From a virus, in IMG/VR virus record IMGVR_UViG_3300011126_000093: DNA of 38,861 bases; one strand, 5' to 3'. Shown here in pieces: positions 1 through 37,537 of this stretch (position 1 is its first letter; every line of letters starts with the position of its first letter). A program made the position numbers and the translations under genes. The notes below the pieces were generated by a model. The model ran no database searches. It worked only from the letters and a program-made list of their open reading frames with translations, and was not told the DNA's origin.

Positions 1-21
1 AGATATTAGGCATCCGACCTG
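1..21. repeat. 21-bp terminal direct repeat, copy 1 (identical to 38841-38861); circular or circularly permuted assembly overlap
   Basis: agatattaggcatccgacctg is read at both ends of the window. Confidence 0.95.
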
Positions 22-162
22 CATGACTGGCACCTTTCGGCGTTACAGTCTGGAGCGGTAACAATCGTTCTACAGCGTTTTTGACTTGGTGCCCGTTGGC
101 TTGCCCGATACCCAAGGCATTAAGGAAGGAACGAATAGCTATAAGTGTAATCCCCGGCACAC

Positions 163-221
163 TCTAGCGGGAGTTTAAAACTACGCCAGAGACTACCTTA
201 TAACCACTCGCACCCGCTAGA
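163..221 (-). promoter_or_regulatory. Perfect 9-bp inverted repeat (TCTAGCGGG / CCCGCTAGA) around a 41-nt spacer, downstream of the last early gene
   Basis: Arms at 163-171 and 213-221. The spacer contains the palindrome AGTTTAAAACT. No U-run follows, so it is not a canonical intrinsic terminator. Confidence 0.4.
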
Positions 222-260
222 ATGCCCAGAAATAATACCATGATTAATCAATTAATAAAA

Positions 261-479
261 TCAGTGTATTACCGATCCGGCAGCGAACAGCCAATCAGTA
301 TTAACATGCTCATCACTAGCATCTTCCTCTTTTTCAGAAAGACTCCTAGAACCACAAAGGCGGCACTCAAAATAATTATAATCATCCGTATCAAAAGAAA
401 AGACCCAATCATGGTGCCCTGAACACTCTTCCCATCCAGCAACTATTAAACCTTCTATAACTTTATTATTCACTGTCAT
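261..479 (-). CDS. hypothetical protein, Cys/His-containing (last gene of the leftward early operon)
   Basis: ORF track 261..494. The ATG at 479 (MTVNNK) overlaps the upstream gene end by 13 nt. Contains HHD...CRLC. Confidence 0.5.
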   Translation of the reverse strand: MTVNNKVIEGLIVAGWEECSGHHDWVFSFDTDDYNYFECRLCGSRSLSEKEEDASDEHVNTDWLFAAGSVIH

Positions 480-666
480 TTTGTTCAACCGCATCTATTT
501 GTAGAGTTAACTCGACTTGGTTAAACCACCCACCACTTTCCATATGCCACCCACCAACTGAAGCATCTAAGCAAATAAGGCCGTACTCTTTAGTCAAATC
601 TTCAAGAACAGCTTCAATTTTCTTTTCAGCTTCTCGCTTTATCTCTTTTGGTTTCATAATTACCAT
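466..666 (-). CDS. hypothetical protein (66 aa)
   Basis: ORF track; co-oriented with its neighbours and preceded by hairpin element 681-730. Confidence 0.5.
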   Translation of the reverse strand: MVIMKPKEIKREAEKKIEAVLEDLTKEYGLICLDASVGGWHMESGGWFNQVELTLQIDAVEQNDSE

Positions 667-680
667 CCAATAAATAAATT

Positions 681-730
681 TAATAACACAGCGTAGCGTT
701 AGACCTTCGGCTAACGTACTGCGCGTTATA
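681..730 (-). repeat. Intercistronic hairpin element, subfamily 1 (TAATAACACA...AGACCTTCGGCT...GCGCGTTATA)
   Basis: Imperfect long stem (CGTTAG/CTAACG core). The distal arm includes the TAA stop of gene 726..971. Shares flanks and centre with 8514-8563. Confidence 0.6.
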
Positions 731-971
731 TTTTGTCTTGCATTTCATATCTTGCGCACATCCACACAGAATACGCAGAGGCAGCTATAAACATCAGTGC
801 AATAAATGGGTCAGCCCAGTGTAAAAACCTATCACCAAAAATAAGCCTCTCCAACTGAGACTCTAATAAATTAAACATCACGTAAAACAGCATTACTGTA
901 ATCACAGACAGAAACGGGTTCCCTTTTGATGCTGTTGCCAGGGCCCAAAACCACAGTTCAATTTTTTTCAT
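726..971 (-). CDS. small membrane protein (about 3 hydrophobic segments)
   Basis: ORF track 726..980 starts at TTG. The ATG at 971 gives MKKIELWFWALA. Hydrophobic stretches are visible. Confidence 0.5.
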   Translation of the reverse strand: MKKIELWFWALATASKGNPFLSVITVMLFYVMFNLLESQLERLIFGDRFLHWADPFIALMFIAASAYSVWMCARYEMQDKI

Positions 972-987
972 ACCTATCAACCATCAA

Positions 988-1066
988 ATATAACAATGTA
1001 AATCACGGCGACTCACTACACGCCGCCTCGCTCTGTTTCGTTCCCGCGTGTTTACGGGGTTATTAA
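988..1066 (-). repeat. Intercistronic hairpin element (ATATAACA...GTAAATCACGGCG / CGCGTGTTTAC...GGTTATTA)
   Basis: Inverted arms were read by eye. The upstream gene's TAA stop lies in the TAATAAC arm. Confidence 0.5.
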
Positions 1067-1254
1067 GTCTTGCCTCGCTCTTCGTCCATCTTCTTCTGGT
1101 TTTCGAGAGCTGATTCCAGCTCTATTCTGTTAAACATGTGGATTTCAGCCTCTAGCGTTTTTCTTTTAGCTTCATCATTGGCTTTGTCTTGCGCTACCTT
1201 TAAGCGGCCAATTTCTTCTTCGATAAACGCATAAGGCTTTGTCATATTAGGCAT
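1063..1254 (-). CDS. hypothetical coiled-coil protein (63 aa)
   Basis: ORF track; SD TAGGGGG lies 6 nt before the ATG. Confidence 0.55.
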   Translation of the reverse strand: MPNMTKPYAFIEEEIGRLKVAQDKANDEAKRKTLEAEIHMFNRIELESALENQKKMDEERGKT

Positions 1255-1271
1255 TTAAACCCCCTAAGGCT

Positions 1272-1326
1272 TAATAACAATAATTTCAAAATGGACGGCT
1301 TCGCCGCCGGTTAAATTCGGGTTATC
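1272..1326 (-). repeat. Intercistronic hairpin element (TAATAACA...GGGTTATC) inside a 158-bp noncoding spacer
   Basis: AATAAC/GTTAT flanks and an internal CGGC-TTC-GCCG stem. Spacer 1255-1412 holds no ORF. Confidence 0.4.
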
Positions 1327-1412
1327 AGTGCCCCATCACGCTTCCCAGCGGCTTAGGCAATGCCGGTCGCTACGTCGGCTTTAGCGTATCACCTCCGGTT
1401 AGAGGGTGTTCT

Positions 1413-1661
1413 TTAAACCTCGTAAACATCAGCTTCACGCAACACGGAATGATCAACATTGCCCTGACTGGTTCCTTTCGGAAACATTCCCCACTCTTCA
1501 ATCTCTGCGCTTTTCGCCTCAGTGTCGTCGTCGTTATATGGAATTACTTCAAGACGCACATTCAACTGTGTCATTTTCCTAATCGCTTCCTCTTTCGTCT
1601 CAGCTTCTATCTGAGCACAAAGATTTGCAGATACCGGCATGTTTACTATAAATGTTTTCAT
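1413..1661 (-). CDS. hypothetical acidic protein (82 aa)
   Basis: ORF track. Its 27-nt leader is nearly identical to that of gene 1718..1924. Confidence 0.55.
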   Translation of the reverse strand: MKTFIVNMPVSANLCAQIEAETKEEAIRKMTQLNVRLEVIPYNDDDTEAKSAEIEEWGMFPKGTSQGNVDHSVLREADVYEV

Positions 1662-1717
1662 AAATTCCCCTTTAATTAAAAATACTTTGCTAATGATGCA
1701 ATAAACAATGAAGGCAG

Positions 1718-1924
1718 TTATAAGCTTTCAATGATTGGAGCCATTTCATCATAAACAACGTCATCAGATACGGCATTGAACGCTTCTGCAAGCGCTGTTT
1801 GCAGTTCAATCATAGAGCCTACTTCGGTTGTTGCAAAGTCGCCATCCTCAGTAGTTACATCTCCAGCTCTATCACTTACCACTTCAAGTGCTGCAAGCAA
1901 AACTTTCTTAATTGATTCGTTCAT
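1718..1924 (-). CDS. hypothetical strongly acidic protein (68 aa, about 15 D/E vs 3 K/R)
   Basis: ORF track; conserved leader GTATTTTTAATTACAGGGGGATTTATG. Confidence 0.55.
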   Translation of the reverse strand: MNESIKKVLLAALEVVSDRAGDVTTEDGDFATTEVGSMIELQTALAEAFNAVSDDVVYDEMAPIIESL

Positions 1925-1966
1925 AAATCCCCCTGTAATTAAAAATACGCACCGGGTTAGTGTGAT

Positions 1967-2000
1967 CGACTAAAACCGACTAACGCCTGATTTCGACTAA
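1967..2000. repeat. Three direct CGACTAA repeats (1967, 1977, 1994)
   Basis: Read directly. Noncoding, and adjacent to the tRNA-like element. Confidence 0.6.
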
Positions 2001-2022
2001 ATCAAGATGGTGCGTATTAGGG

Positions 2023-2136
2023 TGGTGACTGGCTGGGATTCGAACCCGTTAACCAGACTTGCGCCTCAGTGGGTTATCATCCTCACTGAATTTTGATTGA
2101 CTTGATTAGAGCCTTAGCTCAAGCCGTCCAATCACC
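2023..2136 (-). ncRNA. tRNA-like element (non-canonical, about 114 nt); possibly a degenerate tRNA or a relic of a tRNA-type attachment site
   Basis: The minus strand ends ...GGGTTCGAATCCCAGCCAGTCACCA. GGTGATTGG pairs with CCAGTCACC. An internal hairpin has the 7-nt loop ATGATAA. However the T-stem is imperfect (ACGGG/CCCAG) and the length is too great for a tRNA. Confidence 0.35.
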
Positions 2137-2190
2137 ACTCTGATACACACTAAAGCCCCCGCCGTAAACTACACCGCGACGGGTCGGCTA

Positions 2191-2379
2191 TTAACCAAGA
2201 TTTACAGTGCGAACATTGCCGCGCTCAACTGCGTTAACGTAAGACTGAGAAGCTGAATTTGCCCAGTACTCCTCAAAACTATTATCTTTAACTAGTTCAA
2301 CGCCATATTCTGCCAAGTCGCTAAGATCAATATTCTTAGTAGCGGCATCGACTCTTGCTTGTAGCTCTGATTTAGTCAT
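2191..2379 (-). CDS. hypothetical protein (62 aa)
   Basis: ORF track; box promoter 2424-2467 lies upstream. Confidence 0.55.
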   Translation of the reverse strand: MTKSELQARVDAATKNIDLSDLAEYGVELVKDNSFEEYWANSASQSYVNAVERGNVRTVNLG

Positions 2380-2423
2380 TTTTTATTCCTTATCTTTGTT
2401 TGCTTCGTTTACTTTATGTTTTA

Positions 2424-2467
2424 ACTATACCTGACCTGTTTTGTTTGTGTAGGACACTATGCGCCAA
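2424..2467 (-). promoter_or_regulatory. Box-type promoter (TTGGCGC-N5-GTCCTAC, 19 bp, TATAGT)
   Basis: Minus strand reads TTGGCGCATAGTGTCCTAC-N19-TATAGT, about 45 nt upstream of the ATG at 2379. Confidence 0.6.
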
Positions 2468-3050
2468 TTCGCTCTTTATGTTTCGCAACTTCAGCCTTTG
2501 CCGTTTTAATGAAATCATCATAATCCTGAGTGCTTCGCTTAACCGTTGTTTTTTTAACGTCTTGCATATGTATTACAAACTCTTCGCCAAACTCTCGAAT
2601 CATAAACAAAGTATAGAGCGATTCCCTGCCGTCGAATTTCATCCCGTTACCGTTGCAAGGTTTACACTGCGGCCAGATATTACGCGTGTCTAGCATCCAG
2701 TACGAGCTACTGCCTTTAGCTATGTAGTGACCGCCGTCGAACCCATCATTCCATCGCCCTACATGGCCACACGTTACGCATGTGCAAAAGCCGTTGTCAT
2801 CAGCACGCGAAATCCTAGCCAGCTCTTGAGCAACGATTAAAGCCTCAGCCCGTGGGTTTCGTCTAACCTTCTTTAATTGCTCCCTGTGCGCCGCTTTCCT
2901 GACCTTTTCGCCGTTAGCCTTGCCGTTAGTCGTCCTTACCCATTCCGTAGCGTGCTCAGGTGTACAGAAGGCGCCAGCGGGAACCGCTATCATAGATTGG
3001 GCTTCGAAGTAGCCTTTACAGTGCTTGCATCGCTTTTTACTATTCGCCAA
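2457..3050 (-). CDS. ninG: NinG/Rap-like recombination endonuclease
   Basis: N-terminal CKHC...C..EH zinc motif and C-terminal CVTCG...GGHY...CKPCN, as in lambda NinG (recalled from memory). Confidence 0.7.
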   Translation of the reverse strand: MANSKKRCKHCKGYFEAQSMIAVPAGAFCTPEHATEWVRTTNGKANGEKVRKAAHREQLKKVRRNPRAEALIVAQELARISRADDNGFCTCVTCGHVGRWNDGFDGGHYIAKGSSSYWMLDTRNIWPQCKPCNGNGMKFDGRESLYTLFMIREFGEEFVIHMQDVKKTTVKRSTQDYDDFIKTAKAEVAKHKERIGA

Positions 3051-3234
3051 TTTCCTGCCATCCCTTTTCAGTCAGAACCACACTGCCGAACTTTACTGTC
3101 ACTAGGTCTAGTGCAATAAGCTGCTTTACCATCGTCTTATGCCAATCTGCGCTAAAGCCTTTGCGTGTCTTGGTTGGTGTTTGAGTGTACTTTGCAATCT
3201 CAAATAGCCGTTCTTTTTGTAGTGTTGTTGTCAT
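3040..3234 (-). CDS. hypothetical protein (64 aa)
   Basis: ORF track; overlaps both neighbours by a few nt. Confidence 0.5.
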   Translation of the reverse strand: MTTTLQKERLFEIAKYTQTPTKTRKGFSADWHKTMVKQLIALDLVTVKFGSVVLTEKGWQEIGE

Positions 3235-3235
3235 T

Positions 3236-3424
3236 TTAGGCTCTTCTATTCCAATATTTAAAGTCGAAATTTCCGCCTTTATCTTTATATATCGTCATTG
3301 AAGGATTAGGACATAGCATAGAGACTCTGCCGCAACTAACTATTAAAAACTCTTCAGTATGTCGAATTACCACAGCCTTACTCCCACAAAACGGACACGG
3401 CTTTAACTCTTCTTTATTACTCAT
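3236..3424 (-). CDS. Lar-family restriction-alleviation-like protein
   Basis: ELKPCPFCGS at the N-terminus and YWNRRA at the C-terminus match the Lar-family pattern (CPFCG ... WNRRA). Confidence 0.6.
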   Translation of the reverse strand: MSNKEELKPCPFCGSKAVVIRHTEEFLIVSCGRVSMLCPNPSMTIYKDKGGNFDFKYWNRRA

Positions 3425-3821
3425 GTAACCCCCTAGACGGCCAAGGTACGTGTATGCCGTGCTCTGATAGCTTTCTATTTATGTGTTCATATATGAGCGA
3501 GTATTGCTCTCGCTTCGGCTTAGTGGTGCTTTCTTGATCGGTTACAGCCAGCTGTACTGGTCGCCAGATGTTGTCTTTTACAGTGCGCTCATTCCATTGA
3601 ACTTGAAATCCCGGCTTGAAGAATACCTGCTGCTCTATGCCTGCGTCGTTCATTGCATCCGATACCATCCTGCAGTACAAGTGCAATGCGCCGTTCTGAG
3701 TGAGTGTGCGCTGCTTGCCAGTGCTTACCTTAACCTTCAGGTATCTATCAGCTTCATAAGCCGCTGTAAGCTCTTGTATTGCTTCCTGCAAGCTTTGGTC
3801 ACTGTTTATAAGTAGTTCCAT
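3417..3821 (-). CDS. ninB: NinB/Orf-like recombination mediator
   Basis: RTLTQNGALHLYCRMVS resembles lambda NinB RSLDQNRKLWACLGDVS. The STTKPKREQY...HGIHVPW tail also fits. Confidence 0.65.
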   Translation of the reverse strand: MELLINSDQSLQEAIQELTAAYEADRYLKVKVSTGKQRTLTQNGALHLYCRMVSDAMNDAGIEQQVFFKPGFQVQWNERTVKDNIWRPVQLAVTDQESTTKPKREQYSLIYEHINRKLSEHGIHVPWPSRGLHE

Positions 3822-3862
3822 GCTAAGCCCAGTATGTTTTTTTCGTTTTCCGTGATTATCAT
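3806..3862 (-). CDS. possible 18-aa upstream ORF with a strong SD, overlapping the ninB start by 16 nt
   Basis: AAGGGGGTTAAGATG... encodes MIITENEKNILGLAWNYL*. The ninB ATG itself has no SD. Confidence 0.25.
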   Translation of the reverse strand: MIITENEKNILGLAWNYL

Positions 3863-3873
3863 CTTAACCCCCT

Positions 3874-3927
3874 TAATAACACCTCGTAGCGCGCGACTCG
3901 TGCCTCGCACGCGTACTCTTTGTTATT
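3874..3927 (-). repeat. Intercistronic hairpin element, subfamily 2 (about 75% identical to 10677-10731)
   Basis: TAATAACACCTCGTAGCGCGCGACTCGTGCCTCGCACGCGTACTCTTTGTTATT, with stem GCGCGCGA/TCGCACGC. Confidence 0.65.
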
Positions 3928-3929
3928 CA

Positions 3930-4097
3930 TCATCGGCAATGATTAATCTCATCGCACCACCAATCTGCCCACTCTTCAGGCGTCCATCCATTGTCGTTCT
4001 GCGCTTTCGGCATGTCTGTAGAGAAGTCATTGAACTGGTCAGGAATGCCTCTCTCTGCGCACCGCTTATTAAAGCGTTTAACAAAATCATCACTCAT
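3930..4097 (-). CDS. hypothetical protein (55 aa; below the ORF-track length cut-off)
   Basis: GGAGAGTACAGACTATG start; MSDDFVKRFNKRCAERGIPDQ...WWCDEINHCR. Co-oriented, and replaces the antisense track ORF 3834..4115. Confidence 0.5.
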   Translation of the reverse strand: MSDDFVKRFNKRCAERGIPDQFNDFSTDMPKAQNDNGWTPEEWADWWCDEINHCR

Positions 4098-4171
4098 AGT
4101 CTGTACTCTCCATGAATAACAAACATTTAAAATTGGACTGTCGCTAGCGCTCCAGCCCGTTAAAATTGGGG

Positions 4172-4387
4172 TTATGTGTATGCACTACCTTGCTGTCCAG
4201 TATCATTACTGCCAGAACAGTAGTTTCTATGGTTGTTTGCTTTCGGGCACCGCTTATTTCCACATTCTGGGCAAAGTATCATTCGATCAATTATTAAGTC
4301 ATTATCCCTATTGCATTGCCAACAACCACATAACAAGTCGCTTTTGTCGGACTTGCCTTGCTCGGTAGCTTCTTGTTTATCATTCAT
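4172..4387 (-). CDS. Cys-rich zinc-ribbon-like protein (71 aa)
   Basis: CGCWQC ... CPECGNKRC motifs. Confidence 0.55.
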   Translation of the reverse strand: MNDKQEATEQGKSDKSDLLCGCWQCNRDNDLIIDRMILCPECGNKRCPKANNHRNYCSGSNDTGQQGSAYT

Positions 4388-4452
4388 ACTGCTAAAACTC
4401 CGTTGTCTATCAAACTTCGCGTTTTATTGACGTCAAGCCGCAAAGCTTTGGG

Positions 4453-4755
4453 TTAAACATAATCCTGAAGCGCTGCTTTAAGCACCTGCGCTATGCGGCC
4501 ATCAGGATTAGCTTTGATATTCTCAGCTATTCCCGCGTCAAACTCCCGCGCCTTTTCCTTGCCTGAGTCAAAAGCCACTTCGATAATGTCTGACATCAGA
4601 TCCAAGTCATCGCAAGCCATACCGATCAAAGTATCAACGCGAGAGCATTGGTTCATCGCTGCGTCTAAGTGTCTGCGCTCTAATCCCGGCATAGGAAAGT
4701 CATCCCGCTCGTTCGTTTTATTTAGTAGTGCGTTAAAATCAAGTACGTTGTTCAT
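4453..4755 (-). CDS. hypothetical protein (100 aa)
   Basis: ORF track; box promoter 4779-4821 lies directly upstream. Confidence 0.55.
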   Translation of the reverse strand: MNNVLDFNALLNKTNERDDFPMPGLERRHLDAAMNQCSRVDTLIGMACDDLDLMSDIIEVAFDSGKEKAREFDAGIAENIKANPDGRIAQVLKAALQDYV

Positions 4756-4778
4756 CTCATTCCCTCAGTTTTTTATAG

Positions 4779-4821
4779 TCTATACCGTGCCTTCCTTGGC
4801 AGGTAGGACACTTAGCGCCAA
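4779..4821 (-). promoter_or_regulatory. Box-type promoter (TTGGCGC-N5-GTCCTAC, 18 bp, TATAGA)
   Basis: Minus strand reads TTGGCGCTAAGTGTCCTAC-N18-TATAGA. It begins right after the stop codon at 4822. Confidence 0.6.
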
Positions 4822-5031
4822 TTACAGGTCTTCAGACTTGATAAAAACGCCGTCAACTGTTTCACCAGTACGGTCTTTGATCTCAAGCCATGCTGCAAGC
4901 AAGCACTCGTTAAGAGTCATGCCGTTTTGCATAGCCAATATAATTAGAGTAACAACAACGTCGCCAATTCCGTCCTGTAGCTCGTCACGTTTGCCTACAC
5001 GCTTCAATCGCTTTGATTAAATCATCTGTAT
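4822..5031 (-). pseudogene. MazG-like pyrophosphohydrolase remnant, split or truncated
   Basis: The C-terminal part DGIGDVVVTLIILA...EIKDRTGETVDGVFIKSEDL is MazG-like, but it begins at TTG. A 16-aa ATG ORF (MNTDDLIKAIEACRQT*) sits in another frame. The EExxE region is missing. Confidence 0.45.
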
Positions 5032-5388
5032 TCATTCTTTATTTTCCTGTTTTTTGCTGTGCATAAAGTCTAAAACCGTCTCAGAGAACCATTGTGCAAG
5101 ATACGCAACGCTTTCATTGTTGTCTGGAGTTGGGTTTAATCCGCTTATCTTTGCTACGCCCATCGCAGCGTGTAGGCATTCGTGGACAAGGTGCGGAATA
5201 AGTAAACCCCCTTTTTCCTCTGGCAACCACATTACAATCTTTGGCTTCGCAACATCGACAAAAATCCAGCCGCCAAGCTCAGCATATTCATCATCAAACG
5301 GCCCAAACTTTCTTTTTAATTCATCTTCATTGGTACCAAAAAAGAAATCTAAATTGTAAATTGGCAGTCTTCTTTTATGTATCGTCAT
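5032..5388 (-). CDS. putative zinc metallopeptidase-like protein (HExxH)
   Basis: HECLH motif. Start taken at ATG 5388 (GGAAGCGAATAAGATG), which forms an ATGA overlap with the upstream small ORF. Confidence 0.45.
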   Translation of the reverse strand: MTIHKRRLPIYNLDFFFGTNEDELKRKFGPFDDEYAELGGWIFVDVAKPKIVMWLPEEKGGLLIPHLVHECLHAAMGVAKISGLNPTPDNNESVAYLAQWFSETVLDFMHSKKQENKE

Positions 5389-5552
5389 CTTATTCGCTTC
5401 CTTATTAGCTGCCAGCCTAGACAGTTTGCGCATTTAATCAAGCCGACTGACTGGAAGAATATGCCACCCGTGCCGATTAATTTATGGTCACAGGCGCATT
5501 CCGTTGGTTTAATCGCGCCGAGTTTCTCAGCGCGGGTTAGTAGGTCAGACAT
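5385..5552 (-). CDS. zinc-ribbon protein (55 aa; below the ORF-track length cut-off)
   Basis: MSDLLTRAEKLGAIKPTECACDH...CANCLGWQ. TAATG overlap with the upstream gene and ATGA overlap with the downstream gene. Confidence 0.55.
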   Translation of the reverse strand: MSDLLTRAEKLGAIKPTECACDHKLIGTGGIFFQSVGLIKCANCLGWQLIRKRIR

Positions 5553-5893
5553 TAACGTCGCTGGCCCGGAGGTGCCGGTTGTTGTTGATTGTATCCGCCT
5601 TGCTGGATCGGCTGTTGCGGCGCATATCCTTGCGGTGGCTGCTGGTATTGAGCGGGCTGCTGTTGTGGTTGCTGCTGGCCCTGCTCTTTTGGCTCAAACA
5701 ACGAGCACAATACAGTGTCGCGGTTATCTTCGTTAGGCACACCAGCCGGGTTAAAAGTGCGTTTCAGCATCAGGTATGGGCCGTTATCACCTTGCATCAT
5801 AACGCCAATGTTTTCGTACCGGCCTTTTGGCTGGCCTTGCGCGTCAGTGTATGAGCCTGTCTTTACTGTTACGTCGTATAGTTTGTGAGCCAT
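5552..5893 (-). CDS. hypothetical protein with a Q/P-rich C-terminal tail; possibly SSB-like, judged from position only
   Basis: Sits directly downstream of exo-recT. The tail QQQPQQQPAQYQQPPQGYAPQQP resembles an SSB linker, but there is no acidic tip. Confidence 0.3.
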   Translation of the reverse strand: MAHKLYDVTVKTGSYTDAQGQPKGRYENIGVMMQGDNGPYLMLKRTFNPAGVPNEDNRDTVLCSLFEPKEQGQQQPQQQPAQYQQPPQGYAPQQPIQQGGYNQQQPAPPGQRR

Positions 5894-6609
5894 TATTTGG
5901 CCTCCTTATGGTTTTTTAGGTATTCCCAGTGCTGACCAAACGTCACACCGATTGAATTTAGCGCCTGATCCATATCGCTGATAAATTGCGGAACGGCGTC
6001 GGCTAGTGTTTTCTGATCCGCTTCATTAATTTCTGTCTCGACGTAATGAAGACTATTAGCAAGTACAGACCGAGGTTCATACTGTGCGAAAATATGACGT
6101 TCAGCATCAGATGAAAATATCTGAAATTGAGACTGCCAGCGCCATGCTTTTTTGTTTTCCTTGAAGCACGCGAACTTAAAGAAGTTCTCACCGTTGTAAG
6201 GTGCTTTGATTTCAAAGACTGTCTTTTCGTGTACGCCATCAGGTGAGTTGCCATAGCGCATATCTTCATCGGCATAGATAAAGGGCAGCTCTTGAATATC
6301 AATAAAGCCCAGCGCAACGCTTAGCGCATCACGGGCTTCAGGTTCGTATAGACTGCCATGTTCTAACTGTTTGAACGGTAGCTCGTCAGGTATCTTGCAT
6401 GTGCAAATCTGGCTTATAAGGCTTGCCATATACGTTTGACGCCCTATTGAGTCACGCTTAGCGACAATCTTATCGGCATTGCTAGCAGACAAGACGCCCT
6501 GCTTCATTATATGCCACTCAGTAGAACCCTGCTCTATCTTCATAGGGTCAAATCCGAATACATCACTAAGACCTAACAGTCTATCTACTGCGTTTTGATA
6601 AATGCTCAT
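5893..6609 (-). CDS. YqaJ-type recombination exonuclease
   Basis: EQGSTEWHIMKQGVLSASNADKI N-terminal motif; adjacent to and overlapping recT. Confidence 0.7.
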   Translation of the reverse strand: MSIYQNAVDRLLGLSDVFGFDPMKIEQGSTEWHIMKQGVLSASNADKIVAKRDSIGRQTYMASLISQICTCKIPDELPFKQLEHGSLYEPEARDALSVALGFIDIQELPFIYADEDMRYGNSPDGVHEKTVFEIKAPYNGENFFKFACFKENKKAWRWQSQFQIFSSDAERHIFAQYEPRSVLANSLHYVETEINEADQKTLADAVPQFISDMDQALNSIGVTFGQHWEYLKNHKEAK

Positions 6610-7484
6610 TTAACACCGCCGTTACTTTTAACCGTAAGCGCCTGTATCGCGCTCTGTGCTGATTCCTCAGTAAGTTCTGACACTGGCATACCTAGCCATC
6701 TATCGAAGCGCTCTAGCGCCTCAGGAGGCACGTTGTCACGATATTGATTCAACCAACCTGCCGTCTCTGGCTGAATTGGCGTTACATCCCTAACGGCTTC
6801 ATCACTTTCAATTCCTTCATCACCTTCTGAATTCAGGTAATCAATCGCATGATTTAGGCGGTCAACCTTCGGCCAGTACTTTGACGCTCGCTTTACCACT
6901 GTCTTACGGCACATTTCCTCAAAATCGGTCATCCATGGGCCTTTGTTCTTCTTGCCTGATTCGCTTCTTGCTTTAATTGCATTAAGCTGAGCTATGCTCA
7001 TTTCTTCCGTCAGATAGGCACCTGTCGAAGTCTTAACAGTGCAGTAAGCGCCAATAATGGAACCACGGTCACCAAAGCTATTGCACTTATGTACAGGCGC
7101 TTTATCAATACCTTGATTTTCGTAAAAGTCAGCTTCATAGACTAGTTTCGACTGCCCCCACTCAATAGAGCCGGTAGACTGCGCCAAATGAAGCAAACCC
7201 ATGTATGAAATATCAAGGCATATTAAGCCTTTGCGTGGGACAAGATAAGCGTGCTTTCCTGCCGGGTTTAAGCTAATACCAATGGCTGAGGCATTGCGCA
7301 AAGCATTCTGTACGCTTACAGGGTTCTGCCTTGCCACATCAGCCGAGTAATCGTTAGCCAATAAAAGCTGTGTTGCGTAGTTCATTTCCGCTTGAATATT
7401 AATAGACTTGTGGCTCTGTATTAGCTGCACACACTCGGGCTCTACGCCTCTGATTATGTCTGGCACTTGCATTACTTTGTTCAT
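6606..7484 (-). CDS. recT: RecT-family single-strand annealing protein
   Basis: NPVSVQNALRNASAIGISLNP...AYLVPR is RecT-like. Start taken at ATG 7484 (AGGGGATTGATATG), because the track's GTG at 7511 lies inside the promoter -10. Confidence 0.75.
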   Translation of the reverse strand: MNKVMQVPDIIRGVEPECVQLIQSHKSINIQAEMNYATQLLLANDYSADVARQNPVSVQNALRNASAIGISLNPAGKHAYLVPRKGLICLDISYMGLLHLAQSTGSIEWGQSKLVYEADFYENQGIDKAPVHKCNSFGDRGSIIGAYCTVKTSTGAYLTEEMSIAQLNAIKARSESGKKNKGPWMTDFEEMCRKTVVKRASKYWPKVDRLNHAIDYLNSEGDEGIESDEAVRDVTPIQPETAGWLNQYRDNVPPEALERFDRWLGMPVSELTEESAQSAIQALTVKSNGGVK

Positions 7485-7509
7485 ATCAATCCCCTGTGTT
7501 GATAACCCC

Positions 7510-7554
7510 ACTATAGCTAAGCTGGGGGTTTTTGGTAGGACATTACGCGCCTAG
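7510..7554 (-). promoter_or_regulatory. Box-type promoter (TAGGCGC-N5-GTCCTAC, 19 bp, TATAGT)
   Basis: Minus strand reads CTAGGCGCGTAATGTCCTAC-N19-TATAGT, upstream of recT. Confidence 0.6.
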
Positions 7555-7555
7555 T

Positions 7556-8326
7556 TTACTTGATCAGCTCGAATTCTTTCTCAGACCATCGCGCCATATA
7601 ATCTGCCATTTTTGCGACCTCAATATGTACCGGGTCTTTCTTGCCTAAGCGGTTGTTGTACTTATTGACCATTTCCCACATCAGCACGCGGGCTACTTCC
7701 GGCTCGTACTTATTCCACCATTCGTCAATCAGGTCGGTTCCGTCCTTGCGTTTGTGATGGCTAACGTCGTGAGTTGTTTCTGGCTTTTCGTAATGCTCGC
7801 CATCGTTACCGTTTTGACCTACAACATCCTGGCGGCCTTCGGGCCATTCTTCACTTTCTTTAGGTAGTAGGGTGAATTTCAAATCATTGTGGTAGTTTTC
7901 ACCCACAGACCTGCCGTCGTGGCGAAGCGGGCCTACAACGCCATCTGCATCTCTGCCTATCACATAAAGCTCATCATCATAAAACCCCCAGAAGCCATAC
8001 TCTCCCGTAATATACCCATCAAACCTCACCTTGCGCCCTATCAAGTCCTCACTCACCGGCCACTCTAGCGGCTGCTCTTTGTTGTCCGTGCTTAGTGCGT
8101 CTAGCAGGGTGAAGTCGATCTCAAATACGCGCCCGTTACTCCATCCGATAGGTTTTTCTGTCCCAGTACACCACCCTGATGAGCTATTACCCCAGTAACT
8201 ATACCTATTAAGACCAATATCAATATCTCTGTAGTAGTCTATTTCCGATCCATTATTAATTAGCCTGCAACAATCCGCCCCTATCTCCCGCGCAAACTTC
8301 AGCTGTTCAATCGTTAAATCTTGCAT
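7556..8326 (-). CDS. hypothetical protein (256 aa); C-terminus possibly DUF3310-like
   Basis: C-terminal HY...DLIDEWW...MVNKYNNRLGKKD...AKMADYMARW is reminiscent of DUF3310 (from memory, weak). Confidence 0.5.
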   Translation of the reverse strand: MQDLTIEQLKFAREIGADCCRLINNGSEIDYYRDIDIGLNRYSYWGNSSSGWCTGTEKPIGWSNGRVFEIDFTLLDALSTDNKEQPLEWPVSEDLIGRKVRFDGYITGEYGFWGFYDDELYVIGRDADGVVGPLRHDGRSVGENYHNDLKFTLLPKESEEWPEGRQDVVGQNGNDGEHYEKPETTHDVSHHKRKDGTDLIDEWWNKYEPEVARVLMWEMVNKYNNRLGKKDPVHIEVAKMADYMARWSEKEFELIK

Positions 8327-8501
8327 TGTCTATCCCCTCGCTTTCGTAATATTCAGCCAGACTTATATACTGGCGTTCCGGTTTACTCTCATTTAGCGCG
8401 TTTAATCCGATTGTCATAGACGCTATGCAAATCGTAAACGCTGCCGATACTCCAAGCCCTACAAAGAGGCTTTTTATTTGATACTGTATAAATTGTTTCA
8501 T
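8307..8501 (-). CDS. small single-pass membrane protein (64 aa)
   Basis: Start at ATG 8501 (AAGAGGTAAAACAATG); hydrophobic LFVGLGVSAAFTICIASMTIGL. Confidence 0.5.
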   Translation of the reverse strand: MKQFIQYQIKSLFVGLGVSAAFTICIASMTIGLNALNESKPERQYISLAEYYESEGIDNARFND

Positions 8502-8513
8502 TGTTTTACCTCT

Positions 8514-8563
8514 TAATAACACACGCCAGCATAAGACCTTCGGCTCACGCGTGCGGCGTTAGG
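8514..8563 (-). repeat. Intercistronic hairpin element, subfamily 1
   Basis: TAATAACACACGCCAGCATAAGACCTTCGGCTCACGCGTGCGGCGTTAGG. Shares TAATAACACA and AGACCTTCGGCT with 681-730. Confidence 0.55.
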
Positions 8564-8750
8564 CGCTCAACTCTTTCGCTTCTTTGATAATTTCTGCTTG
8601 ATTGAAATTGCCGCCTGCAACTGCCTCGGCCAGTAATTGAAATCTGCGCCATTTTTCAACAGCCTCACAAACTACTTCATTGCCCATCGGGTCGTAGTCT
8701 CGCTCTTTTTCCCGCGTAACGTATCCAACCCTATAAACATGTTCAATCAT
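8559..8750 (-). CDS. hypothetical protein (63 aa)
   Basis: ORF track 8559..8774; preferred start is ATG 8750 after GGGAGAA. Confidence 0.5.
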   Translation of the reverse strand: MIEHVYRVGYVTREKERDYDPMGNEVVCEAVEKWRRFQLLAEAVAGGNFNQAEIIKEAKELSA

Positions 8751-8829
8751 TGTGGTTTCTCCCGCGCCTAACAAGGCGCTGTAAGTTTATTTCGCTGGCG
8801 ATCAAAATTAATCGCCGGGTTATTAATTA

Positions 8830-8874
8830 ATCTTACCAACTCCACACAATCACGCTAGGACACTTTGCGCCTAG
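8830..8874 (-). promoter_or_regulatory. Box-type promoter (perfect dyad CTAGG-N10-CCTAG, 19 bp, TAAGAT)
   Basis: Minus strand reads CTAGGCGCAAAGTGTCCTAG-N19-TAAGAT; overlaps the dnaB stop. Confidence 0.6.
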
Positions 8875-10211
8875 TTTTGGCTCTGGAATGAATCGCTTAG
8901 GTTTCCAAATCGACTAAAACGCAAGTCGTCTTTCATGTAAGCCGTTCCCAGTTCACCGTCTCGACTCTTACTAATAATAGCCTCTGCAACGCCTTTATAC
9001 TCTGTGTCCGGGTTGTATATCTCATCACGATAAACACCTATAACAGCATCCAAATCAGCCTCAATTTTACCAGAATCTCGAATATCGTGTTTCATCGGCC
9101 TGCGGTCTGGCCGGTTTGTTATGCCTCGGTTTACTTGGAATAGCGGAAGAATACAAACGCCGGTTTCCAGCGCTAAGAATTTCAACCCTTTCGATATATT
9201 ACCCAGCTCATTAACGATGTCCTTGCCCGGAATGCTCATTAAGTGAACGTGGTCAACGACAACTAAAAGCCGCTCCGTGTGGCCTTCTGCCTTCATCTTG
9301 CGCACCCAAGCCTTAATCCTTGCAGTTAGTGTTGATATGGTCTGCCGTGCTCCACCGTCAATAGTTAGCGGTAAGCCTTTCAGCTTTTGCGTTCCTGCCG
9401 CCAGTCGTGGCCATTGCTCGTCAGGATTAGCAAAGCCGCGCGGGTCTCTTAGAAAGTCACGGTTGACATCGCCAGCAGATGATATAAAACGATTCATCAT
9501 TTGCGCTGGCGGCATTTCCATCGTCGCGTAAAAAACAGGGATGCCCATATTTAAACTGGTTTCCGCTGCTGTTTGAGCAAGTGTGGATTTCCCCGAACTT
9601 GTCGCACCGATAATCCCGATAACTCGGCTTGGTTCAGGTACTAGCATCTTATCAAGCTGGTCTATTCCAAACGTCCAATCATCACCCTCGAAGTTAAATC
9701 GCTCATCAATGCGAGTAATTGCAAGCCTGAGAGCGTCGTCACCGCTGATAATGTCGCCAGTGTTGCAGTCATCATCCATTCTCTGCAACTGTGTGGCCGT
9801 GTAATCCTTTACCTCCTCCGTCTCCGCCCCTTCGTCAATCTTCGCGCGAATATCGCCTGACAGGGCCACTAAGGAGCGCCTGCGCGAACGATCTATGATA
9901 ATTTCGGCGTATGCCTTGGCGTTGTCGATTGACGGCGTTATATCGACCATGCGAGACAGATAAGCCGCCCCACTCGCCGCCTCTAGCTTCCCGGTTAACT
10001 CTAGCCGCTCCGCAACAGTCACAACGTCCGTCGGCTGCGCACTCTCTGACAAGTGCGTGATTGCTTCAAAAACTAGCTTGTGATTCCCGCCGTAAAAGTG
10101 GCTAGCTTGAAGCCCTACCTCTGTCACGATGTCGAAAGCTATCTCATCTAACATGATAGCCCCAAGAACGCTTTGCTCAGCTTCTTGACTGTACAACTTG
10201 CTATCGTTCAT
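8871..10211 (-). CDS. dnaB: DnaB-family replicative helicase
   Basis: N-terminal SQEAEQSVLGAIMLDE, Walker A GATSSGKST and a length of 446 aa. Confidence 0.85.
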   Translation of the reverse strand: MNDSKLYSQEAEQSVLGAIMLDEIAFDIVTEVGLQASHFYGGNHKLVFEAITHLSESAQPTDVVTVAERLELTGKLEAASGAAYLSRMVDITPSIDNAKAYAEIIIDRSRRRSLVALSGDIRAKIDEGAETEEVKDYTATQLQRMDDDCNTGDIISGDDALRLAITRIDERFNFEGDDWTFGIDQLDKMLVPEPSRVIGIIGATSSGKSTLAQTAAETSLNMGIPVFYATMEMPPAQMMNRFISSAGDVNRDFLRDPRGFANPDEQWPRLAAGTQKLKGLPLTIDGGARQTISTLTARIKAWVRKMKAEGHTERLLVVVDHVHLMSIPGKDIVNELGNISKGLKFLALETGVCILPLFQVNRGITNRPDRRPMKHDIRDSGKIEADLDAVIGVYRDEIYNPDTEYKGVAEAIISKSRDGELGTAYMKDDLRFSRFGNLSDSFQSQN

Positions 10212-10245
10212 TAATCCCCCTGATTATTATTAGTGCGCTGTATTG

Positions 10246-10500
10246 CTATTTATTGTCTTTCTTAACAACCTTCTTTTTTACCAGTTCATATTCACAAAGC
10301 ACCGACTCAAGTGCATTTTTAATAGCTTTCGCATGATTTATTCTTCCAGCCTCACCCCATGGTACGCCATCCCACCTTGATGGATGGCGCTTTTCGGCAT
10401 AAGCCTTACTTGCTCGCTCTATCATTTCATTTGTAACTTTCACACCTACCTCCCCGCGCCGTGGCGCTTTGTTATTCGCTGAAAATCCGATCAAACTCAT
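10246..10500 (-). CDS. hypothetical protein (the start may be GTG 10443, after GGGGAGGTAGGT)
   Basis: ORF track; an alternative strong SD lies before the internal GTG. Confidence 0.5.
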   Translation of the reverse strand: MSLIGFSANNKAPRRGEVGVKVTNEMIERASKAYAEKRHPSRWDGVPWGEAGRINHAKAIKNALESVLCEYELVKKKVVKKDNK

Positions 10501-10654
10501 CTACAGCCATTTTAGCTCTAGAGGCTGCGACGTTCCCACCATACTTCCTGATTTCACCCTGATTTAAAACATAAACCTCTTTGTATAACTGCATGCGAAT
10601 AATAAGTCGCTGCTGGTCGGACTCTTGAACACCATGCTGTTTTTCATCTGCCAT
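10472..10654 (-). CDS. hypothetical protein (60 aa)
   Basis: ORF track; SD GGAGAGGG lies before the ATG. Confidence 0.55.
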   Translation of the reverse strand: MADEKQHGVQESDQQRLIIRMQLYKEVYVLNQGEIRKYGGNVAASRAKMAVDEFDRIFSE

Positions 10655-10676
10655 AACCCTCTCCTGCTTGTTGTTT

Positions 10677-10731
10677 CATAACACCTCATGCGCGGCGATC
10701 TCGTACCTCGACGCGCGTCCTCTTTGTTATT
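10677..10731 (-). repeat. Intercistronic hairpin element, subfamily 2
   Basis: CATAACACCTCATGCGCGGCGATCTCGTACCTCGACGCGCGTCCTCTTTGTTATT. Stem GCGCGGCGA/TCGACGCGC. The upstream TAA stop lies inside the AATAACA arm. Confidence 0.65.
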
Positions 10732-10909
10732 TTGCGTTCAGTGAATTCCAAAGTTTAAATGCCCAAGGGGATATGCTTGATCTAGTCATGTTTTCACAGC
10801 ATGAATACATATAATCTCCGCGTGGGCGACTTAGCGCTGGTTTCTCGCCACAAGTCTTGCAAACTAACAATTCACTCAAATCGGACTCGCTTTTTTTCGC
10901 ATTACTCAT
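10727..10909 (-). CDS. zinc-ribbon protein, weakly Lar-like (60 aa)
   Basis: CKTCGEKP...SCC...AFKLWNSLNA loosely parallels the CPFCG...WNRRA pattern. Confidence 0.45.
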   Translation of the reverse strand: MSNAKKSESDLSELLVCKTCGEKPALSRPRGDYMYSCCENMTRSSISPWAFKLWNSLNAK

Positions 10910-10933
10910 AAATTCTCTCCGTTTAGCTCTGGG

Positions 10934-11137
10934 TTATGTGTTTAATAGTTTATCAACGTCCCCCATCCATCGGATAACATCTTTAGCGTGCATGTTTTTT
11001 ATTGTTACAGCCTCTTTACCGTCATCTTTAGAGAAATAAGTTCTCATTTCACGCAAAAGCTCACACATAACAAGTGCGTCAACGCGACCGCCTAACTCTG
11101 TGCTTACTTCTGGTTTCTCTGTTTCGTTATCCATCAT
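10934..11137 (-). CDS. hypothetical protein (67 aa)
   Basis: ORF track; SD TGGAG lies before the ATG. Confidence 0.55.
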   Translation of the reverse strand: MMDNETEKPEVSTELGGRVDALVMCELLREMRTYFSKDDGKEAVTIKNMHAKDVIRWMGDVDKLLNT

Positions 11138-11185
11138 ATTTGCTCCAATATTTGTTTAATTAATGCGGCACGTTACCCAAGGGCC

Positions 11186-11231
11186 ATAAAACCACACTCA
11201 CCGCCCAAGCCATAGGACTGTTTGCGCCTAT
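11186..11231 (-). promoter_or_regulatory. Box-type promoter, weaker (perfect dyad ATAGG-N10-CCTAT, 20 bp, TTTTAT)
   Basis: Minus strand reads ATAGGCGCAAACAGTCCTAT-N20-TTTTAT. The -10 element is poor. Confidence 0.4.
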
Positions 11232-11254
11232 CTGTCAGCCCACTGTGTAGCGGC

Positions 11255-11425
11255 TTACCAGTCGTCCCACTTGTCATTTATTACAGACAACTTGTAGTCT
11301 TCACCACTCCTAACCATTAATCGGCTTACAAACTCATCATCGACTGAGGGCGACCTTAGCTTTAGTTTTCTAATCGTGTGGGCCTCAAACGCATCACGGC
11401 TTGTCTGCTCTTGTTTGTTAGTCAT
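11255..11425 (-). CDS. hypothetical protein (56 aa; below the ORF-track length cut-off)
   Basis: TAATG overlap with gene 11425..11706; MTNKQEQTSRDAFEAHTIRK...DKWDDW. Confidence 0.5.
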   Translation of the reverse strand: MTNKQEQTSRDAFEAHTIRKLKLRSPSVDDEFVSRLMVRSGEDYKLSVINDKWDDW

Positions 11426-11706
11426 TATTCACCCTCCGCGTTTTTAATTGCGTCACGAATCCTATCCGCAACATGCAACTGTTTTACGTGCCGATTAGCA
11501 CCACCATCTCTAGCGCTTAAGGTTGGCACCATTTCGCAGTCCACCGCCTCTTTCAAAGCCGCTAATAACTCATCACGCTGCTGTTTTAGCATGTCAATCT
11601 CGCTTTGCTGCTGAACCGCGTACCAGTTATCATGGTGGAAACATTCGGTCGCTTTGCATATTTCAATATCACCGCGCAATATGCAGTGCTTGCATTGATC
11701 AGTCAT
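11425..11706 (-). CDS. Cys-rich N-terminus plus coiled-coil protein (93 aa)
   Basis: Start at ATG 11706 after GGAGGGG; CKHC...C...C motifs. Confidence 0.55.
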   Translation of the reverse strand: MTDQCKHCILRGDIEICKATECFHHDNWYAVQQQSEIDMLKQQRDELLAALKEAVDCEMVPTLSARDGGANRHVKQLHVADRIRDAIKNAEGE

Positions 11707-11983
11707 TCCCCGCCCCTCCAATCTTAATGAAAATATTAGTGTTACTACCAATTATTGAGTCATCAACAGTTACGCCATCTATACAGACTTTTACGCCTTT
11801 CGTATTGTCTATATAAAAACAAGAGCCTTCGTTAAGCATGAGTACGCAATTTCCTATCAATTCAACATCGCACCCAAATTTGAGCCTGTGCTGTAATTTC
11901 TTACGCTCAACTCTCACCAGCCAACGTGGTACGCACTGGCCTTTTTTATACATATTCGATGGTAGCTTTCTTTTTTTACTCAT
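11699..11983 (-). CDS. hypothetical basic protein (94 aa)
   Basis: Start at ATG 11983 after GGAGGGG (the track start is TTG 11995). Confidence 0.5.
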   Translation of the reverse strand: MSKKRKLPSNMYKKGQCVPRWLVRVERKKLQHRLKFGCDVELIGNCVLMLNEGSCFYIDNTKGVKVCIDGVTVDDSIIGSNTNIFIKIGGAGND

Positions 11984-12099
11984 AATCCCCTCCAATTCTC
12001 ATAAGCCAAGTAAAAACCGATAACCAGCGCCATTACGCCAACAATCACAACAGCCGATCCTACATGCAGTGCGATTAGCTCTAGTGTTAGTGCGCTCAT
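11983..12099 (-). CDS. small membrane peptide (38 aa; below the ORF-track length cut-off)
   Basis: AGAGGGTTGATATG start; MSALTLELIALHVGSAVVIVGVMALVIGFYLAYENWRGL. ATGA overlap with the next gene. Confidence 0.45.
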
Positions 12100-12100
12100 A

Positions 12101-15775: not shown

Positions 15776-15820
15776 ATATTAGCTAACTGATTAAGCGGAG
15801 GGTAGGACGGAACGGGCCAA
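15776..15820 (-). promoter_or_regulatory. Box-type promoter, leftward early (TTGGCCC-N5-GTCCTAC, 20 bp, TAATAT)
   Basis: Minus strand reads TTGGCCCGTTCCGTCCTAC-N20-TAATAT. Confidence 0.55.
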
Positions 15821-15891: not shown

Positions 15892-15935
15892 TTGGCGTGA
15901 AGTGTCCTACAAATTTATTTACGGGGCGGTATAGT
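15892..15935 (+). promoter_or_regulatory. Box-type promoter, rightward (TTGGCGT-N5-GTCCTAC, 19 bp, TATAGT)
   Basis: Plus strand reads TTGGCGTGAAGTGTCCTAC-N19-TATAGT, 25 nt before the ATG at 15961. Confidence 0.6.
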
Positions 15936-36861: not shown

Positions 36862-36906
36862 GTGGCCCATTGTGTCCTACCCTGCCTAGCAATGCGTTGC
36901 TATTAT
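36862..36906 (+). promoter_or_regulatory. Box-type promoter for the plus-strand two-gene cassette (GTGGCCC-N5-GTCCTAC, 20 bp, TATTAT)
   Basis: Plus strand reads GTGGCCCATTGTGTCCTAC-N20-TATTAT. Confidence 0.5.
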
Positions 36907-37328: not shown

Positions 37329-37537
37329 AGCTTCTCAATTTCTAACTTCTTCCGCCGTATGTCCAATCTGTGTTGCTCGTTTCTCTGAACTCTCTCTTCA
37401 AGATACTTCGCTAGCATAATAACAAAGCCACCTACCGCTACCGCCATCGTTACAAATTCAGTAGGGTTGTCAATTATCCATGTTCCGATCATTCCGAGTG
37501 CGGTTAGCGCGCCTCCTGTCTGATACCTTTCGTCCAT
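37313..37537 (-). CDS. holin-like protein (2 TMDs plus a highly charged C-terminus)
   Basis: GGALTALGMIGTWII and FVTMAVAVGGFVIMLA, followed by a K/R/E-rich tail. Located just before the packaging genes. Confidence 0.45.
   Translation of the reverse strand: MDERYQTGGALTALGMIGTWIIDNPTEFVTMAVAVGGFVIMLAKYLEERVQRNEQHRLDIRRKKLEIEKLENPD

Follow-up and report, generated by a model that had tools for sequence, protein, structure and literature searches.

Eight hairpins in the early region of a marine P22-like phage

The IMG/VR virus record IMGVR_UViG_3300011126_000093 is a stretch of 38,861 nucleotides (hereafter the window), in whose early region we found eight hairpins that resemble attC sites, the recombination sites of bacterial integrons. 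The window is the ~39-kb genome of a marine P22-like phage from an uncultured lineage, with 45.5% G+C and nearly all of its genes on the minus strand. Pfam searches identified a P22-type portal and coat, the large terminase, DnaB, RecT, a YqaJ exonuclease, NinG, and a T5orf172 protein. The nearest named relatives of the portal protein belonged to Vibrio and Aeromonas phages (~44% identity), and megablast returned no match between the early region and any named phage. IMG/VR contained three mosaic contigs with DnaB proteins 97–99% identical to that of the window (L001, L002, and L003, hereafter the relatives), together with one near-identical fragment (L004). ARAGORN found no tRNA in the window, and Rfam 15 gave no match at the gathering score across the whole window and none at E values up to 1 in positions 1250–2500.

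All eight hairpins lie on the minus, gene-sense strand within ~10 kb and are confined to early operons, and in each of them the bounding TAAC...GTTA is present and paired. Six had been listed, at the correct coordinates, in an initial annotation of this DNA; of the two that it missed, one (C2) was picked up by a scan for ATAAC...GTTAT and the other (C3), which ends in GTTAG, by a covariance model. We sorted the copies into four subtypes, A to D, and list them here in the order of their coordinates, with bulged bases in parentheses:

A1, 681..731, minus strand: attC-like hairpin, TAAC-GCGCA-GTA-CGTTAG-CCGAAGG-(T)-CTAACG-(C)-TAC-GCTGT-GTTA; its TAA is the stop codon of gene 971..726.
D, 988..1066, minus strand: longer attC-like hairpin with a branched centre, TAAC-CCC-GTAAA-...-(A)-TTTAC-ATT-GTTA; after the tandem stop codons TAATAA of gene 1254..1063.
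C1, 1272..1327, minus strand: attC-like hairpin with bulges TT(G)AAA and GCCG(T)CC.
B1, 3874..3928, minus strand: attC-like hairpin, TAAC-AAAGA-GTA-CGCGTG-...-(T)-CGCGCG-(C)-TAC-GAGGT-GTTA; folding z-score -3.97.
C2, 4114..4177, minus strand: attC-like hairpin; its TAA is the stop codon of gene 4387..4172.
A2, 8514..8564, minus strand: attC-like hairpin with the 5′ arm GCCTAAC.
C3, 8766..8825, minus strand: attC-like hairpin.
B2, 10676..10732, minus strand: attC-like hairpin with the weakest fold; its TAA is the stop codon of gene 10909..10727.
Possible remnant (uncertain), 10434..10476, minus strand: B-type 5′ arm AATAACAAAG and a short GC hairpin reaching the Shine-Dalgarno (SD) sequence of the next gene.

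Within types, identity was 73–82% (B1/B2 82%, A1/A2 77%, C1/C2 73%). The two subfamilies proposed in the initial annotation stand as the A and B pairs within a larger set of four, and the B pair (given there as 3874–3927 and 10677–10731) is closer than the ~75% that had been estimated. A D-type copy, 81% identical, occurs at a different place in L001. Folded singly, the hairpins had moderate z-scores, between -0.6 and -4.0 relative to shuffled sequences.

The hairpins typically bridge a stop codon and the next ribosome-binding site. According to the initial annotation the 5′ arm usually includes an upstream TAA stop, and for B2, A2, C2, and A1 the TAA of TAAC is indeed the in-frame stop of the upstream open reading frame (ORF); in C1 and D this TAA comes second in a tandem of stops, for B1 the assignment is ambiguous, and C3 has no upstream ORF, being placed between a promoter-like motif (8856–8875, described below) and the start of gene 8750..8559. 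The SD sequence begins shortly past the 3′ arm, as had been claimed, at a distance of 3–14 nt rather than 5–20 nt; downstream of B1 it is followed by a short ORF and then by a NinB-like gene. The annotation was also right that these are not simple terminators: none of the eight is followed by a T-run tail, and none of the 17 terminator-like sites in positions 1–12400 coincides with a minus-strand hairpin. Neither sigma-70-like promoters nor promoters of the motif type were found inside the hairpins.

Three further ATAAC...GTTAT matches (9040–9122, 11067–11130, and 11565–11630) fell inside coding sequence and were set aside as chance occurrences. The intergenic stretch 4395–4455 on the minus strand starts with TTAACCC like a C-type 5′ arm and recurs at 87% identity elsewhere in L001 (7791–7851, just after dnaB); it may be a degenerate copy or a different junction element.

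A hairpin family with covarying stems

The relatives carried many more TAAC...GTTAT hairpins, with different stems, and we found dozens of further copies in mosaic relatives and other marine viral contigs. The pattern TAAC-N-GCCGAAGGTC-N-TGTTAT matched 33 stretches of viral contigs, with about two thirds of the matches forming the same two-stem hairpin, and the TAAC and GTTA ends paired in every one of the 44 elements taken from relatives. Support for the fold is strong at the level of the family. We aligned 22 A-type copies drawn from 16 contigs: paired cells made up 98.2%, as compared to 78% in shuffled alignments and 29–43% when the partners were slid, and seven pairs had changes on both sides; the covariation that the initial annotation had named as its check is therefore present. 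The non-Watson–Crick pairs of this alignment, read on the gene-sense strand, comprised 21 G·U and no A·C pairs, which indicates that the folding strand is the sense strand.

A looser pattern (TAACAA...GARGTGTTAT) yielded mostly chance matches in viral contigs, and those loci became our negative control. One apparently inverted B-type copy, in contig L165, sits in a block of oppositely oriented genes, so that its orientation relative to the genes is kept. Filters that folded candidates under DNA energy parameters discarded real sites, being too stringent.

In bacterial genomes (596 Gb) the TAAC-loop-TGTTAT pattern had 70 matches, most of them unstructured chance occurrences. The structured matches were of two kinds: prophage-like copies in metagenome-assembled genomes of Oceanospirillaceae and Amphritea, and arrays of TAACGCC...CTTGTTA hairpins spaced by 300–800 bp in Pseudomonas, Alcanivorax, Spongiibacteraceae, and the BD1-7 clade. 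These arrays are classical integron cassette arrays. Structured genomic matches were found only in the integron arrays and the prophage-like stretches, not as the many dispersed chromosomal copies that would be expected of a host repeat resembling repetitive extragenic palindromes or miniature inverted-repeat transposable elements.

The sense strand has the architecture of an attC bottom strand

The rules of the attC bottom strand comprise an R box, in which only the triplets AAC and GTT are conserved and which is cut between A and C, an unpaired spacer of 5–6 nt, an L box, and two extrahelical bases, one at position 16, where G is usual, and a conserved T at 23/24, with a required separation of 6 bp; a GAA terminal loop is frequent, and there are extra G·T pairs (Nivina 2016, PMC5027507). 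That a TAACGC...TTGTTA reading corresponds to the bottom strand follows from the aadA7 control in Table S3 of Qi et al. (2023, PMC9892861).

The gene-sense strand of the phage hairpins carries this full architecture. A1, A2, and B1 read TAAC (R′), a 5-nt unpaired central spacer, a 3-nt L box, a 6-bp stem, the loop, an extrahelical T, the other side of the stem, a second extrahelical base, the other side of the L box, a 5-nt spacer, and GTTA (R″), which is the register of the aadA7 bottom strand, with both bulges on the 3′ arm and exactly at positions 16 and 23 when counted from the 3′ end. In A1 all three L-box pairs and all six stem pairs form. The fit of C1–C3 is approximate (16/17 and 24); D follows a 3+5 variant that the bacterial arrays show as well. 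A GAA loop is often present, and a G·T pair stands beside the R box; the outer extrahelical base is mostly C, not the usual G.

Across the family, 16 of 53 intergenic hairpins had the full layout on the sense strand, 15 of these 16 with T at the inner bulge, and none of the 53 had it on the antisense strand. When we aligned the 44 elements of the relatives from their ends, without gaps, the canonical register paired 64.6% of L-box and stem cells as compared to ~40% in slid registers, and all nine L-box and stem pairs contained double changes. The attC-like architecture is thus kept across many phages by covarying stems.

Reciprocal recognition by covariance models

We built two covariance models, one (R1) from 30 bacterial attC bottom strands plus aadA7, with 88.7% of cells paired, and the other (R2) from the hairpins of relatives only. 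In the window the bacterial model R1 recovered two significant copies, C1 (21.1 bits, E 1.3e-3) and C3 (17.2 bits, E 0.017); in L001 it recovered a hairpin at 25.5 bits (L001_7863, E 1e-4), and it gave the attC sites of Pseudoalteromonas phage H101 30–38 bits. Conversely, the phage-derived model R2 recognized attC sites: three in H101, experimentally validated with IntI1 (30.3, 28.1, and 24.6 bits), and 13 in bacterial integron arrays, all in the bottom-strand orientation. On the minus strand of the window R2 gave A1 32.7 bits (E 5.6e-6), B1 32.2, A2 23.7, C1 23.6, C3 19.1, C2 16.1, and B2 15.9; D and the possible remnant at 10434–10476 were missed by both models. In the control, 825 kb of unrelated viral DNA pre-enriched for TAAC...GTGTTAT, R2 had seven matches of at least 18 bits.

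For the B type we had first placed the bottom strand on the antisense strand, on the basis of the register predicted by RNAfold and of weak antisense R1 matches (15.7 and 10.6 bits). We dropped this reading because B1 and A1 agree on the sense strand in their L box (GTA/TAC) and in both bulges (C and T), and because R2 scores are higher on the sense strand (19.1 bits for B1 on the plus strand). Outside the early region, an R2 match at 31626–31656 consists of the R box alone, without stems, in coding sequence, and is attributed to chance. A match at 37417–37455 on the minus strand (R1 12.4 bits, R2 15.7 bits), within the coding sequence of a 74-amino-acid membrane protein, is probably due to chance as well, although uncertain: it is the sole late-region match with some L-box pairing, the R1 alignment having partial L-box and stem pairing.

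Clusters of attC sites in phages have been known since 2023, when they were reported without an integrase in 17 of 10,705 phage genomes, and IntI1 recombined five of the six phage attC sites tested (Qi et al. 2023, PMC9892861). The hairpins of the window resemble those of Pseudoalteromonas phage H101 (also PH101), in which intergenic attC-type hairpins likewise separate small co-directional genes, no integrase is present, and the coding strand of the flanking genes carries the bottom strand. They differ from the H101 sites in their R1 scores (8–21 bits), in comprising at least four subtypes, in abutting stop codons and SD sequences, and in lying at gene-swap junctions in comparative data. In H101 itself (L237; NC_029094, 70529–82585) we noted a further attC-like site at L237 4599–4655 (36.6 bits).

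Because the hairpins fold on the transcribed-sense strand, with its 21 G·U and no A·C pairs, between a stop codon and a nearby SD sequence, within early operons, and without the U-tracts that transcription termination would require, one could suppose that they act mainly in mRNA, as RNase III-type processing sites, as stabilizers of 3′ ends, or by bringing the terminating ribosome near the next SD sequence. In size, in their internal loops, and in their place between early cistrons on the mRNA strand they recall the RNase III sites of phage T7, which are imperfect hairpins of 50–60 nt with internal loops; to our knowledge, however, T7 sites have no TAAC/GTTA closing box and no bulges fixed at 16 and 23, and do not mark gene swaps. 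An attC bottom strand lying on the coding strand predicts the strand asymmetry and the G·U pairs equally well, whereas an RNA function does not explain the invariant TAAC/GTTA, the two 3′-arm bulges 6 bp apart with their conserved T, the reciprocal matches of the covariance models with attC sites, or hairpins that are 80–100% identical between unrelated genes. Nor does it suit those hairpins that do not separate two cistrons: C3, which follows the promoter-like motif in a 5′ leader and has no upstream cistron, and L001_11705, immediately upstream of such a motif. A primarily RNA-level function, the set of roles (RNase III site, stabilizer, attenuator, or coupling device) put forward in the initial annotation, is therefore unlikely in our view. 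Because the folding strand is the mRNA strand, the hairpins may nonetheless have an additional effect on RNA; attC sites reportedly can influence the translation of downstream cassettes.

Hairpins lie at gene-swap junctions

L001–L003 are highly mosaic with respect to the window, and the hairpins lie at the borders of variable genes and at breakpoints of homology between the relatives. Of 64 homology-block ends in positions 1–11,300 (three relatives), 12 were within 10 nt of a hairpin, although hairpins with this margin cover just 5.3% of the region (binomial p ~1e-4, a value to be read with the caveats that block ends are not independent and that gene borders are favoured in any phage). The segment 1325–730 of the window, which contains C1, a gene, D, and another gene, is absent from L001 and L002, in which the conserved stretch upstream of C1 (window 1470/1413–1328) runs directly into an A1-type hairpin, as if two units, each running from C to TAA, had been inserted at TAA/C. 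L001 and L003 both retain A2 and the 64-amino-acid gene downstream of it; homology begins there with the T of TAAC, and the genes upstream are different. The homology blocks shared with L001 and L003 stop at 8820 and 8829, at the 5′ edge of C3.

The genes between hairpins are mostly variable. Four of the five genes with a confirmed hairpin on both sides (8750, 4097, 1254, and 971) have no homologue in L001–L003; the fifth, 8326..7556 (A2 upstream, C3 downstream), is common to L001 and L003. Gene 10654, after B2 and before the uncertain remnant at 10434–10476, also has no homologue in L001–L003. Among core genes, those for DnaB, SSB, NinB, and NinG are shared with relatives, RecT is unmatched, and the exonuclease matches weakly (27–29%). 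DNA methyltransferases (N6_N4_Mtase, and DUF4942 plus MTS; L002 6788–7414, L001 1620–3220, and L003 2675–4339) are among the variable genes of the relatives; Qi et al. noted this class of cargo in phage attC clusters.

We saw two cases of linkage between a hairpin and its downstream gene, A2 with the 64-amino-acid gene in three genomes and L001_12652 with L002_14421. A strict linkage of gene and hairpin as a cassette was not found: for hairpin pairs 80–100% identical between different contigs, the upstream proteins were homologous in 0 of 17 comparisons and the downstream proteins in 1 of 19, such that similar hairpins mostly flank unrelated genes. Chromosomal integrons are alike in this respect, similar attC sites flanking unrelated genes there as well.

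Another explanation for these junctions is that the hairpins are conserved intergenic "linkers", patches of homology for recombination of the RecT/YqaJ type, with no site-specific enzyme involved. Genes for RecT and a YqaJ exonuclease are present in the window; A1 forms an isolated block of homology flanked by a junction on either side; and breakpoints also cluster at the unrelated, repeated promoter-like motif, which accounts for a further 7 of the 64 block ends and of which two copies bound a segment (8856–7557) missing from L002. There is also a precedent in the PeSLs (promoter/stem-loop cassettes) of T4-type phages, composites of an early promoter and a terminator that are thought to work by homologous recombination (PMC2839356, PMC4122927). 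Like PeSLs, the window hairpins are repeated intergenic motifs of variable early regions, found at junctions of insertion, deletion, or replacement between related phages; unlike PeSLs, they have neither promoter nor U-tract and do have attC geometry, so that they share the association with junctions without being PeSLs. The separate promoter-like motif behaves more like a PeSL. Patches of homology need no fold, yet compensatory changes keep the structure of the hairpins while their sequence drifts, and neither the attC-specific bulge geometry nor the R box is explained by homology. We consider it distinctly improbable that the hairpins are linkers and nothing else. The linker explanation is compatible with an attC reading and need not replace it, and RecT-aided homologous recombination at conserved linkers probably contributes, the promoter-like motif being a junction too.

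A probable integrase-less array of attC-type sites

Taking these results together, we favour the explanation that the hairpins are integron-type attC recombination sites and that the early region is an integrase-less array of small accessory genes, akin to a cluster of attC sites lacking integron integrases (CALIN), and we regard this as probable. By their architecture and by reciprocal model recognition the hairpins belong with attC sites; by the polarity of their ORFs and the lack of an integrase they do not. The likeness to bacterial integron sites (aadA7 and the arrays found here) extends to the TAAC/GTTA R box, the unpaired spacer, the L box, extrahelical bases at 16 and 23/24 and 6 bp apart, the GAA loop, and the G·T pair beside the R box, and the differences to the missing integrase and attI site, ORFs on the bottom-strand side, A-type sites shorter than 57 bp, and an outer extrahelical base that is usually C and not G. 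Since neither an intI gene nor an attI site was found beside the array in the window, as a complete integron would have, the array is a CALIN at most.

Several observations weigh against this assignment. A Pfam scan of the 20 larger ORFs of the window and six ORFs of relatives revealed no tyrosine recombinase or integrase. The bottom-strand-like strand is the coding strand at all eight sites of the window, whereas cassette ORFs of integrons lie on the top strand with attC downstream; in the bacterial arrays, the longest ORF ran opposite to the bottom-strand reading in all 24 inter-site segments, so that the phage polarity, like that of H101, is the reverse of that of every bacterial cassette checked. 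With R1, A1 (11.7 bits, E 0.64), A2 (10.2 bits, E 1.7), and C2 (8.0 bits, E 7.5) reached just the score of a bare R box, and the model missed B1, B2, and D in the window. The strict layout occurs in just the 16 of 53 family members mentioned above, and the flanks beyond TAAC and GTTA do not follow RYYYAAC/GTTRRRY. Because TAAC and GTTA were built into our search patterns, their invariance outside close relatives is partly by construction. At ~51 nt including 7-nt R boxes, the A type falls under the quoted attC range of 57–141 bp (B is ~55–57, C ~56–65, and D ~80 nt), although equally short sites (45–46 nt from TAAC to GTTA) occur inside the bacterial arrays L182, L184, L187, L202, and L232. 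The block ends at the promoter-like motif imply that any conserved intergenic sequence may serve as a junction. Finally, the early regions of other phages contain homologues of gene 8750..8559 that no hairpin flanks, which implies that gene and hairpin are separable; one of these phages (L238) has two family hairpins elsewhere.

The missing integrase, together with the poor fit of B2, C2, D, and the remnant at 10434–10476 to the canonical layout, could also mean that the hairpins are inactive, drifting relics of attC sites that arrived with cassettes captured from a host integron. Purifying selection is indicated instead by the covariation and by a bulge spacing that diverged copies in many contigs retain, and simple capture sits poorly with ORFs oriented oppositely to those of integron cassettes; we think it very unlikely that the hairpins are relics.

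If the hairpins are attC-type sites, the coding strand would fold when it becomes single-stranded in replication or recombination intermediates. A host integron integrase would then bind the R and L boxes with the extrahelical bases as a guide, cut between A and C of TAA/C, and exchange strands with another attC site or an attI site, and replication would resolve the junction. With the bottom strand as the coding strand, a mobile unit would consist of C-hairpin-SD-ORF-TAA. Each hairpin would then move with the gene downstream of it, in agreement with the two cases of linkage that we saw, and the stop codon of the preceding gene would also be the site of crossover.

A broader and more speculative proposal, which we hold to be possible though rather doubtful, is that a wide group of marine phages runs a cassette system of its own that lacks an integrase, in which a coding-strand attC-type site stands upstream of each accessory ORF, the crossover at TAA/C is the preceding stop codon, and cassettes of the form hairpin-SD-ORF-TAA are swapped among co-infecting phages, and possibly with host integrons, by a host integron integrase or a phage enzyme that has escaped recognition. 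If so, phage cassettes in host integrons would insert silently, facing the Pc promoter, and site-specific recombination of single-stranded DNA would be a main driver of mosaicism in the early region.

How phage mosaicism arises is an old question, with conserved "linker" sequences on one side and illegitimate recombination followed by selection on the other. Here, the borders of genes that vary between close relatives are marked by a structured, sequence-poor site like that of a known recombination system, which would add an uncultured P22-like lineage, as well as many related viral contigs, to the phage attC clusters reported in 2023. Points that seem worth following up are the density of sites (eight in 10 kb) and their subtypes, the overlap of crossover point and stop codon, the reversed ORF polarity, and the coincidence with gene swaps. 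The polarity, opposite to that in integrons, bears on whether phage cassettes would be expressed or hidden in bacterial integrons. For annotation, such hairpins should not be filed by default as terminators or RNA-processing sites.

Other features near the hairpins

The promoter-like motif reads (T/C)T(G/A)GGCGC-N5-GTCCTA(C), followed ~19 nt on by a TATAGT-like hexamer, and has 10 matches in the window as compared to 0.38 expected:

2450–2469, 4804–4823, 7536–7555, 8856–8875, and 11213–11232, minus strand: promoter-like motif.
12246–12261 and 15803–15818, minus strand: weaker copies of the promoter-like motif.
15894–15909 and 36864–36879, plus strand: promoter-like motif.

Copies stand right after stop codons at the heads of gene blocks, and judging by sequence and position the motif looks like a phage-specific promoter or an activator box. 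Ordinary sigma-70-like sites are depleted in the window (6 as compared to 19.8 expected).

Two non-coding stretches on the minus strand are structured or conserved. In a 260-nt non-coding gap (1925–2190), positions 2020–2195 have a tRNA-like fold (-58.9 kcal/mol, z-score -2.4) in which an 11-bp acceptor-like stem (GUGGUGAUUGG/CCAGUCACCAC) surrounds several arms, including a perfect T-arm (GGGUUCGAAUCCC), and is followed by ACCACCC; neither ARAGORN nor Rfam called it, and it is partly conserved in L001 and L002. Positions 1326–1412, 87 nt between gene 1661..1413 and C1 without a convincing ORF, are 85–93% conserved in L001 and L002 and may represent a small RNA, a leader, or some degenerate element.

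On the same strand past B1, a strong SD sequence and an ATG at 3862 open an 18-codon ORF (3806–3862) with an A7 run, the TAA of which overlaps the out-of-frame ATG (3821) of the NinB-like gene; possible explanations are a leader peptide, a frameshift site, and a sequencing error. The minus-strand gene at 4822–5036, which by eye looks like one for a MazG-like pyrophosphohydrolase, appears split: the ORF from the ATG at 5036 ends ~17 codons on, and the frame of the C-terminal part opens no earlier than a TTG at 5007, which suggests a pseudogene or a frameshift.

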